DNA from: Frankiaceae bacterium
GTDB lineage: Bacteria; Actinomycetota; Actinomycetes; JAFAQI01
Direction: 5' to 3'
Length of the DNA stretch: 64,000 nt
Assembly: GCA_019239875.1 (NCBI GenBank)
Contig: JAFAZI010000047.1
Span: 39,870-103,869 of the forward strand
Shown: piece by piece, positions 7,262-7,410 of the stretch
Numbering within the stretch: position 1 is the first letter of the stretch
Layout: each line of letters starts with the position of its first letter
Program-made: the position numbers and the translations under genes
The notes under the pieces: generated by a model
Told to the model about the DNA's origin: nothing
Database searches by the model: none
What the model saw: only the letters and a program-made list of their open reading frames with translations

Positions 7262-7410
7262 TGGCTGTCACGTGCCAGTGCACCACAGCAGGACCGGGGG
7301 ACCCACCCGCGGTCGCAGCGAAGCACCACCGCGATCGCATGGGGTGAAGTCGGCCGAAAGGCCGGCCGGGCACCTTCCAGCCCGAACCCGTCAGCTCACT
7401 TCGTAGGCGC
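7262..7410 (+). promoter_or_regulatory. candidate cyclic-di-AMP riboswitch (ydaO/kimA class) in rpf leader
   Basis: 5' UTR of the Rpf gene contains ...CAGGACCGGGGGACCCACCCGCGG...GCAUGGGGUGAAGUCGGCCGAAAGGCCGGCCGGGCACC...GCCCGAACCCGUCAGCUCACUUCGUAGGCG followed by RBS GAGGAAGGGA and the ATG. The pseudo-twofold CCGGGGGACCCA / GGGGUGAA / CCCGAACCCG..CUCGUAGG blocks are the hallmark ydaO elements, and this riboswitch is known upstream of actinobacterial rpfA genes. Confidence 0.6.

Follow-up and report, generated by a model that had tools for sequence, protein, structure and literature searches.

A c-di-AMP riboswitch ahead of an Rpf-LysM gene in a Frankiaceae bacterium: probable translational control through a pseudoknotted Shine-Dalgarno sequence, and a conserved extra 5' helix

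What does the RNA leader of a resuscitation-promoting factor (Rpf) gene do in an uncultured Frankiaceae bacterium, and by what route might it act on that gene? We addressed this question in a 64,000-nucleotide stretch of contig JAFAZI010000047.1 (assembly GCA_019239875.1), referred to here as the window, which encodes a predicted secreted protein with Rpf and LysM domains. Positions 7239-7424 of the window are a bona fide cyclic di-AMP (c-di-AMP, ydaO-class) riboswitch in the 5' untranslated region of this gene. Our overall explanation, which we hold with good but not complete confidence, is that the riboswitch is a translational OFF switch that works by occluding the Shine-Dalgarno (SD) sequence, and that a further helix, here named S1, serves it as a clamp.

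Identity of the riboswitch and its relatives

The whole window was scanned against Rfam 15 at gathering thresholds, and three matches were returned: the c-di-AMP/ydaO family (RF00379), a signal recognition particle (SRP) RNA and a tRNA. The RF00379 match (Rfam cmscan; 7239-7424, forward strand) scored 67.7 bits against a gathering threshold of 38, with an E value of 1.5e-13, and runs from model position 1 to 134 of 134 without truncation; against our lineage model (R1, described below), the same aptamer scored 150.9 bits. The original prediction, made from the sequence, had proposed a candidate ydaO-class riboswitch at this place, and the Rfam score, well above anything chance would give, bears it out. 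The conserved ydaO blocks that it had read in the rpf leader are likewise there to the letter (ACCGGGGGACCCA at 7293-7305, GGGGUGAA at 7341-7348 and GCCCGAACCCGUCAGCUCACUUCGUAGGCG at 7380-7409). The element lies on the same strand as the Rpf-LysM gene, and its 3' end is 5 nucleotides before the ATG. No second copy of RF00379 was found in the 64-kb window, either by the Rfam scan or by the lineage-specific covariance model run with filters off.

Riboswitches of this class bind two c-di-AMP molecules with picomolar to nanomolar affinity. By our own count from the RF00379 alignment, about 49 of the 56 strongly conserved consensus positions are kept in the window element, and the junction and core bases identical to the consensus comprise GAA at 7253-7255, GGGGUGAA at 7341-7348 and CCCGAACCCGUCAGCU at 7381-7396. 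The conserved junction bases of the two ligand pockets, GAA after P1, GUGAA after P5 and the CCCGAACCCG.CAGCU core, are present. Seven helices, P1 to P7, arranged in two pseudo-symmetric three-way junctions, all form in the window, where every pair of the helices listed below and in the following sections was checked individually:

7248-7252 / 7406-7410, forward strand: P1, GCGCC with GGCGC, 5 base pairs
7253-7255, forward strand: J1/2, GAA, following the 5' strand of P1
7256-7263 / 7286-7293, forward strand: P2 hairpin, UCCUGCUG with CAGCAGGA, 8 of 8 pairs
Between the P2 strands, forward strand: P2 loop, 22 nucleotides, carrying the 3' strand of S1 (S1b) and an unpaired 3' segment
7295-7299 / 7399-7403, forward strand: P3, enclosing P4, P5, P6 and P7
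7304-7305 / 7340-7341, forward strand: P4, with an inner 8-bp stem at 7309-7316 / 7331-7338
7342-7344 / 7387-7389, forward strand: P5
7349-7355 / 7360-7366, forward strand: P6, with a GAAA loop
7368-7371 / 7380-7383, forward strand: P7, with loop ACCUUCCA

Relatives for comparison came from two sources. A protein-guided scan, limited to one genome per species and with His-rich linker patterns among its queries, gave 80 loci, the best of which is only 61% identical in protein; the closest are from Frankiales, Jatrophihabitans and Mycobacteriales metagenome-assembled genomes (MAGs). Wherever a close relative has sequence ahead of the gene, Rfam places RF00379 directly before it. A lineage model built from ten of these leaders brought the set to 23 leaders in all, which belong to Frankiales-like MAGs, ten Micromonospora, one Streptomyces, Wenjunlia and one Streptosporangiales MAG. 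In addition, a DNA-pattern scan of metagenome contigs produced 80 further loci (81 matches), and the metagenome comparisons given below refer to 68 loci. Orthologous leaders from both sources (23 genome and 68 metagenome loci) retain the seven helices with compensatory changes. In the 23-leader alignment, 97.9% of the cells are standard pairs, versus 38-49% when the 3' partners are slid, and changes on both sides of the pair are seen in 12 of 29 pairs, a result matched by none of 500 shuffles. P1 is 100% paired, with compensatory changes in two of its pairs, and P2 shows compensatory change in six of seven modelled pairs; P5 and parts of P1, P3 and P7 are invariant and hence uninformative on covariation.

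These comparisons also bear on whether the element might be a decayed or repurposed ydaO-like RNA, with another ligand (such as ATP, which was once proposed) or with a purely structural role in the leader. Departures from the consensus do exist, namely GAAU to GAAG at 7349, UA to CC at 7366-7367 and CUAACC to CUCACU. However, the departing positions are shared or tolerated in the 23 and 68 relatives, in which the helices are kept by compensatory change, the score stands 30 bits over the curated threshold across the full model, and the gene that follows is of the kind canonical for actinobacteria. The class, moreover, binds c-di-AMP with picomolar affinity and does not directly recognise AMP (PMC7266159). 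We find a decayed or repurposed RNA scarcely credible, and we treat the element below as a c-di-AMP riboswitch.

Its link to a muralytic gene, also part of the original prediction, holds as well, in that the downstream open reading frame (ORF) carries Pfam Rpf and LysM domains. As was stated at that time, the arrangement is an established one, having been described for rpfA of Streptomyces (PMC10117811), rpfA of Mycobacterium tuberculosis (PMC6009663) and rpf1 of Corynebacterium glutamicum (PMC9960051), the last of these as a prediction. The window element is therefore a well-known riboswitch class in a well-known actinobacterial gene context, and what our analysis adds is corrected boundaries, comparative evidence from a covarying SD sequence and a conserved extra 5' helix. 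The M. tuberculosis case, likewise a prediction (PMC6009663), is a ydaO homologue of the same class in the 5' untranslated region of an rpf gene, in a related order. Among the ORFs next to the metagenome riboswitches, Rpf was found 35 times, NlpC/P60 16 times and LysM 13 times (counts that include the protein of the window itself), together with peptidoglycan-binding, M23 and SLT domains. To our knowledge, M. tuberculosis RpfA, unlike the protein of the window, is without a LysM domain. The metagenome counts match the earlier finding that actinobacterial ydaO elements almost always stand ahead of cell wall genes (PMC9960051).

Domain architecture is not what the riboswitch follows. At 14 Streptomyces Rpf-LysM loci (L010-L015, L017-L020, L022, L028, L053 and L059), no RF00379-like element was found within 3 kb with filters off, and these loci could not be used as orthologous leaders. 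The 14 genes are the best protein matches after those of the Frankiales-like MAGs, whereas the Micromonospora orthologues carry the riboswitch; the association is therefore specific to the paralogue.

The pseudoknot, the Shine-Dalgarno sequence and the level of control

How the riboswitch might act on the gene can be approached through the tail of the aptamer, where two features meet:

7373-7378, forward strand: 5' strand of the pseudoknot (anti-Shine-Dalgarno), CCUUCC in the P7 loop, 6 of 6 Watson-Crick pairs with 7413-7418
7411-7420, forward strand: ribosome binding site (RBS), GAGGAAGGGA, in which GGAAGG at 7413-7418 is the 3' strand of the pseudoknot

GAGGAAGGGA is the sole SD-like sequence ahead of the ATG at 7430, and its GGAAGG is placed 11 nucleotides before that codon. 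The original prediction had put the ydaO blocks immediately before the RBS, which is right as to position, but the RBS proves to be a part of the aptamer, as the 3' strand of its pseudoknot. The limits proposed for the element, 7262-7410, were accordingly too narrow, and the functional unit extends over about 7239-7432. The 5' limit was some 23 nucleotides late and fell inside P2, leaving out 7239-7246, 7248-7252, 7253-7255 and 7256-7263; the 3' limit coincides with the end of P1, while the pseudoknot strand (that is, the RBS) continues to 7418.

The pairing between the P7 loop and the tail, a hallmark of the riboswitch class, recurs in the relatives with quite different sequences (CCCUUCG/CGAAGGG, CUCACG/CGUGAG, CCUGAC/GUCAGG, CGAUCA/UGAUCG, CUCUGC/GCAGAG and others). 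In both sets of loci, a P7 loop forms a more stable duplex with its cognate tail than with non-cognate tails, at -9.35 versus -6.60 kcal/mol among the genome loci (n=23) and -8.28 versus -6.64 kcal/mol among the metagenome loci (n=68), with 0 of 10,000 permutations as good in either case, in tests of cognate against non-cognate partners that are not phylogeny-aware. In each of the 68 metagenome relatives, the 3' strand and an SD-like tetramer overlap, and in 58 of them that strand lies 5-14 nucleotides upstream of the start codon. From the end of P1 (7410) to the ATG (7430), the window has 19 nucleotides; the median distance in the metagenome relatives is 16.5 nucleotides (n=68), where start codons were picked by a simple rule that favours short tails.

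We also looked for other expression platforms. A scan of 6900-8300 for an intrinsic terminator (a hairpin followed by a U-tract) found none, and a terminator platform of the Bacillus subtilis type was dropped on that ground. The B. subtilis ydaO/kimA element, the prototype of RF00379, shares the aptamer family, the ligand and the OFF direction, but it has an intrinsic terminator downstream of the aptamer, belongs to a K+ transporter gene, is AT-rich and has an unstructured 5' flank (Rfam positions 1-10 unpaired). Three further pairings within the leader were considered and set aside. The minimum free energy (MFE) fold of 7239-7445 pairs CAGUGCGC (7244-7251) with GCGCGCUG (7432-7439), directly past the ATG, and GGCGCG at 7406-7411 can pair with 7433-7438 (z = +1.3); neither is kept in the two closest leaders (L001 and L002), and we rejected both as chance GC-rich pairings. 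A hairpin that would place the RBS in its loop (ACUUCGU 7398-7404 with ACGAAGU 7420-7426) is perfectly complementary in the window and is missing from the same two leaders.

Given that the SD sequence is a covarying strand of the pseudoknot, that there is no terminator and that the gap to the start codon is 19 nucleotides, a translational OFF switch is the most likely arrangement, with c-di-AMP binding turning rpf off through occlusion of the RBS. At high c-di-AMP, two ligand molecules would lock the pseudo-symmetric seven-helix aptamer, and the locked aptamer would stabilise the long-range pseudoknot between CCUUCC (7373-7378) and GGAAGG (7413-7418). Because the purine stretch of the pseudoknot is the SD sequence itself, the 30S subunit could not then bind, and rpf would not be translated. 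The untranslated mRNA may subsequently be lost through decay or premature termination, as a secondary effect. When c-di-AMP drops, the pseudoknot would open and Rpf would be made. Translation would, on this account, be the primary level of control.

Two characterised members of the class provide precedents. The riboswitch of Thermoanaerobacter pseudethanolicus (4QLM/4QLN; PMC11963983) shares the seven-helix pseudo-symmetric aptamer and a 6-bp long-range pseudoknot. This joins the P7 loop to the 3' tail, 1-3 nucleotides after P1, and its 3' strand is the proposed SD sequence of a translational OFF switch; the pseudoknot can be read in the crystallised sequence (loop CUCCUUCG, tail CGAAGGAG; PMC5393176). 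In 2025, single-molecule Förster resonance energy transfer and a green fluorescent protein reporter indicated that the ligand-induced pseudoknot of this RNA sequesters the SD sequence and represses translation (PMC11963983). This firmicute example differs from the window element in that the crystallised construct has no P2 elaboration and no S1, and it precedes another gene. The nlpC riboswitch of C. glutamicum (PMC9960051) is closer to ours, being an actinobacterial ydaO-class element ahead of a cell wall hydrolase gene and without a terminator, although the gene is of the NlpC/P60 type and not an rpf. Reporter data for nlpC led to a conclusion of translational control, with the RBS suggested to take part in a CTCC/GGAG pseudoknot (PMC9960051). 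That suggestion had no backing from structure or covariation; our comparison provides it for actinobacteria more widely.

The rpfA riboswitch of Streptomyces coelicolor and S. venezuelae is harder to reconcile with this scheme. It is of the same class, precedes a gene for a secreted Rpf-LysM protein, has no canonical terminator and would be expected to follow the same OFF logic, with high c-di-AMP giving less Rpf. As summarised in PMC10117811 (St-Onge et al. 2015; St-Onge & Elliot 2017), however, c-di-AMP binding to the S. coelicolor rpfA leader, the one rpfA riboswitch dissected by experiment, is reported to act through premature termination of transcription instead of on translation, and rpfA transcripts rise 5-fold in an S. 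venezuelae disA mutant, whereas the anatomy of the window element points to sequestration of the SD sequence. It could be, then, that the same riboswitch works in the window primarily by transcription attenuation of a noncanonical or Rho-dependent kind, in the leader or early coding region, and that the occlusion of the SD sequence is incidental. That the S. coelicolor element also does without a canonical terminator (PMC9960051), like ours, fits such a view. Nevertheless, we judge attenuation distinctly unlikely as the primary output. There is no hairpin with a U-tract in 6900-8300, and just 19 nucleotides separate P1 from the ATG; covariation between the SD sequence and the P7 loop would have no purpose in a purely transcriptional switch; a reduced transcript level is also what blocked translation would be expected to produce; and the C. 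glutamicum (PMC9960051) and T. pseudethanolicus (PMC11963983) members control translation. With the SD sequence being a covarying pseudoknot strand in every relative examined, the comparison favours direct translational control over the termination model drawn from Streptomyces rpfA.

An additional helix linking the 5' flank with the P2 loop

The Rfam consensus leaves positions 1-10 unpaired and treats the P2 loop as an insertion, and S1 is thus absent from it. In the window, these two parts pair with one another:

7239-7246 / 7265-7272, forward strand: S1, CGUGACAG with CUGUCACG, 8 base pairs, with an optional U7247-G7264 pair

The 5' strand of S1 adjoins the 5' side of P1, and its 3' strand follows the 5' strand of P2, such that S1 encloses the 5' strands of both P1 and P2 and forms a second pseudoknot together with the aptamer. 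S1 occurs with differing sequences in 23 of 23 genome leaders (GUUACGG/CCGUGAC, UGCCGGG/CCCGGCA, GGCCGGC/GCCGGCC and CGACCGG/CCGGUCG are examples of more than ten sequence solutions) and, on visual inspection, in most of the listed metagenome leaders; its two strands covary in nearly every high-GC actinobacterial member that we examined. Cognate S1 duplexes come to -20.4 kcal/mol versus -13.7 kcal/mol for non-cognate ones at the 23 genome loci, and -20.9 versus -14.1 kcal/mol at the 68 metagenome loci, with 0 of 10,000 permutations as good in either set. At the metagenome loci, the duplex is equally strong irrespective of the downstream gene. Its geometry is also tight there, with 0-1 nucleotides between S1 and P1 in 57 of 68 loci and 0-2 nucleotides between S1 and P2 in 59 of 68, and the loop that follows S1b in the relatives is 30% A, compared with 13% in the other parts measured. 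Read as DNA, the arms GTGACAG...CTGTCAC could be taken for a CRP- or MtrA-like protein operator; we rejected this, since the arms covary into unrelated sequences, which points to conservation at the RNA level.

What S1 does can be approached from its topology. Apart from the optional U7247, it shares no nucleotide with the helices of the aptamer. It would be completed in transcription before the 3' strand of P2, and its stability exceeds that of P1 or P2, so that an S1 incompatible with the aptamer would trap the RNA. We infer that S1 is a structural clamp, which forms an H-type pseudoknot with P2 and stacks on P1, and not an anti-aptamer. Most likely, it fastens the P2 loop to the 5' flank and stacks on P1 and P2, and in doing so it would compensate for a P1 limited to 5-6 bp, a length imposed on P1 by the pseudoknot, which takes up the 3' flank of P1.

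An opposite role can be imagined, in which S1 is the anti-aptamer conformer of the ligand-free state, confining the 5' strands of both P1 and P2 to its loop, and in which its opening and closing constitute the switch. S1 is, after all, pseudoknotted with respect to P1 and P2, which makes simultaneous formation sterically demanding, and the MFE fold of the isolated 5' segment is the S1 hairpin with P2 unformed. Yet none of the nucleotides in P1, P2 or the binding junction is taken up by S1; with 8-13 GC-rich base pairs worth about -15 to -28 kcal/mol, S1 would, if incompatible, seldom allow the aptamer to form; and the tight junctions of 0-2 nucleotides, together with the A-rich 3' loop, resemble a coaxially stacked H-type pseudoknot. 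We therefore regard an anti-aptamer role as rather unlikely and retain the clamp. We also offer, more tentatively, and as something we would sooner doubt than assert, the idea that high-GC actinobacterial c-di-AMP riboswitches form a two-pseudoknot subclass to which the window element belongs. One pseudoknot would be the known pairing of the P7 loop with the SD sequence; the other would be an apparently undescribed helix of 8-13 bp that joins the P2 loop to the 5' flank, precedes an A-rich loop and clamps a P1 that is of necessity short.

Several points weigh against the explanation as a whole. To the S. coelicolor result, to the disregard of phylogeny in the permutation tests and to the rule by which metagenome start codons were picked, it should be added that S1, P1 and P2 together are topologically demanding, and that the coexistence of S1 with the bound aptamer is a proposal. 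Ligand binding and the OFF direction are read across from membership in the family and would hold to the extent that this member behaves like the others. Production of c-di-AMP by the host is likewise assumed, from its general occurrence in actinobacteria; neither a diadenylate cyclase (DAC) nor a c-di-AMP phosphodiesterase (DHH) domain was found among the 42 ORFs scanned in the 64-kb window.

The rpf gene, its promoter and its neighbourhood

The remaining features of the transcription unit are as follows:

7180-7185 and 7204-7209, forward strand: putative promoter, -35-like CTGGAT and -10 TAACGT with an 18-nucleotide spacer
7215-7227, forward strand: 13-bp DNA palindrome, TTGCTCaGAGCAA, overlapping P0
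7218-7222 / 7232-7236, forward strand: P0 hairpin, CUCAG with CUGAG, with the invariant loop AGCAAACGC
7430-8107, forward strand: rpf gene, encoding a predicted secreted Rpf-LysM protein of 225 amino acids
8123-8166, forward strand: hairpin of 20 of 20 base pairs, 16 nucleotides after the stop codon, with no U-tract

A strict sigma-70 consensus scan of 6900-8300 gave nothing. The putative promoter is suggested instead by comparison with three other leaders (L001, L002 and L133), against which TAnnnT (T7204, A7205 and T7209) and the -35 TTGG are invariant while the intervening bases vary, and transcription would start near 7215-7217. Between the presumed -10 element and the aptamer lies a near-invariant block, GTGCTTGCTC.GAGCAAACGC (7211-7231), conserved in four leaders whose flanks have diverged. 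The P0 stem, which overlaps it, changes in a compensatory manner (CUCGG/CCGAG in L001 and L002, CUCAG/UUGGG in L133) and folds at -10.2 kcal/mol (z = -1.7). One possibility is that the block serves as an operator across the transcription start; another is that it acts in the RNA, as a 5' element.

The Rpf domain of the gene product (Pfam Transglycosylas, PF06737; E = 7.4e-35) covers residues 42-118 and the full profile, and the LysM domain (PF01476; E = 3.4e-6, 27.3 bits against a cutoff of 20.9) covers residues 173-221. Read by eye, the N terminus is a hydrophobic segment ending in AHA/AT, and the CESGG catalytic motif is at residue 54. The protein is thus a predicted muralytic enzyme with the architecture of RpfA and of Micrococcus Rpf. 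Between the two domains runs a His/Lys-rich, low-complexity linker (residues ~128-155; 7811-7894), possibly metal binding or pH sensitive. An identical protein has been deposited from a Frankiaceae bacterium MAG as MBV9486062.1 / MBV9869935.1, under the name "LysM peptidoglycan-binding domain-containing protein." The hairpin beyond the stop codon is very stable (-39.7 kcal/mol, z = -6.2, with 0 of 200 shuffles as stable) and probably forms the 3' end, or acts as the terminator, of a monocistronic rpf transcript.

Upstream of rpf lie asd, ask, recR, ybaB, dnaX, the SRP RNA, an ArsR-type regulator and a STAS protein. The last two form a pair directly upstream of the rpf promoter region: the ArsR-family helix-turn-helix regulator is at 6330-6689 (forward strand), and the ORF with the STAS domain (anti-sigma-factor-antagonist-like; 6610-7032) overlaps it by 80 nucleotides, though its true start is probably later than 6610. 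L001 and L002 share the placement of the SRP RNA (bacterial small type, RF00169; 5310-5406, reverse strand; 66.2 bits) ahead of the rpf riboswitch and on the other strand, which makes this a syntenic locus. The mechanically called dnaX ORF (3426-5579) crosses the SRP RNA, and the real dnaX start must therefore be further downstream, near MSLALYRKY.

Downstream neighbours are an LPG_synthase_C protein, a pyridoxal phosphate-dependent decarboxylase and a tRNA-Ser. The first of these (8237-9703, forward strand) comes next after rpf, beyond the 8123-8166 hairpin, and is an envelope-modifying protein with the C-terminal domain of phosphatidylglycerol lysyltransferases (E = 3e-59). The tRNA (11125-11211, reverse strand; Rfam, 55.2 bits) has a long variable arm and, by its shape, is presumably tRNA-Ser. 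Further away, an NlpC/P60 gene (16623-17822, reverse strand) belongs to a class that is often under c-di-AMP riboswitches in actinobacteria; no riboswitch was found upstream of this one, either by Rfam at E<=1 in 17600-20100 or by the lineage model with filters off. An 886-amino-acid protein (50203-52863, reverse strand) has ten RTX calcium-binding nonapeptide stretches (HemolysinCabind, E = 2e-78), which looks unusual for an actinobacterial MAG.

For the organism, the riboswitch adds a secure regulatory annotation to a protein deposited merely as a LysM-domain protein, and it ties a cell wall remodelling and resuscitation enzyme of an uncultured Frankiaceae bacterium to c-di-AMP signalling. 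For the family, the covarying SD sequence bears on a question that is open in the field, namely, how the terminator-less actinobacterial c-di-AMP riboswitches act. S1 extends the structural model of these riboswitches by one concrete element that can be put to the test. Should it exist in the bound state and tune ligand sensitivity or the order of folding, a riboswitch class whose structure is well studied would gain a peripheral element that is new to it, and the working of these switches without a terminator would be accounted for.

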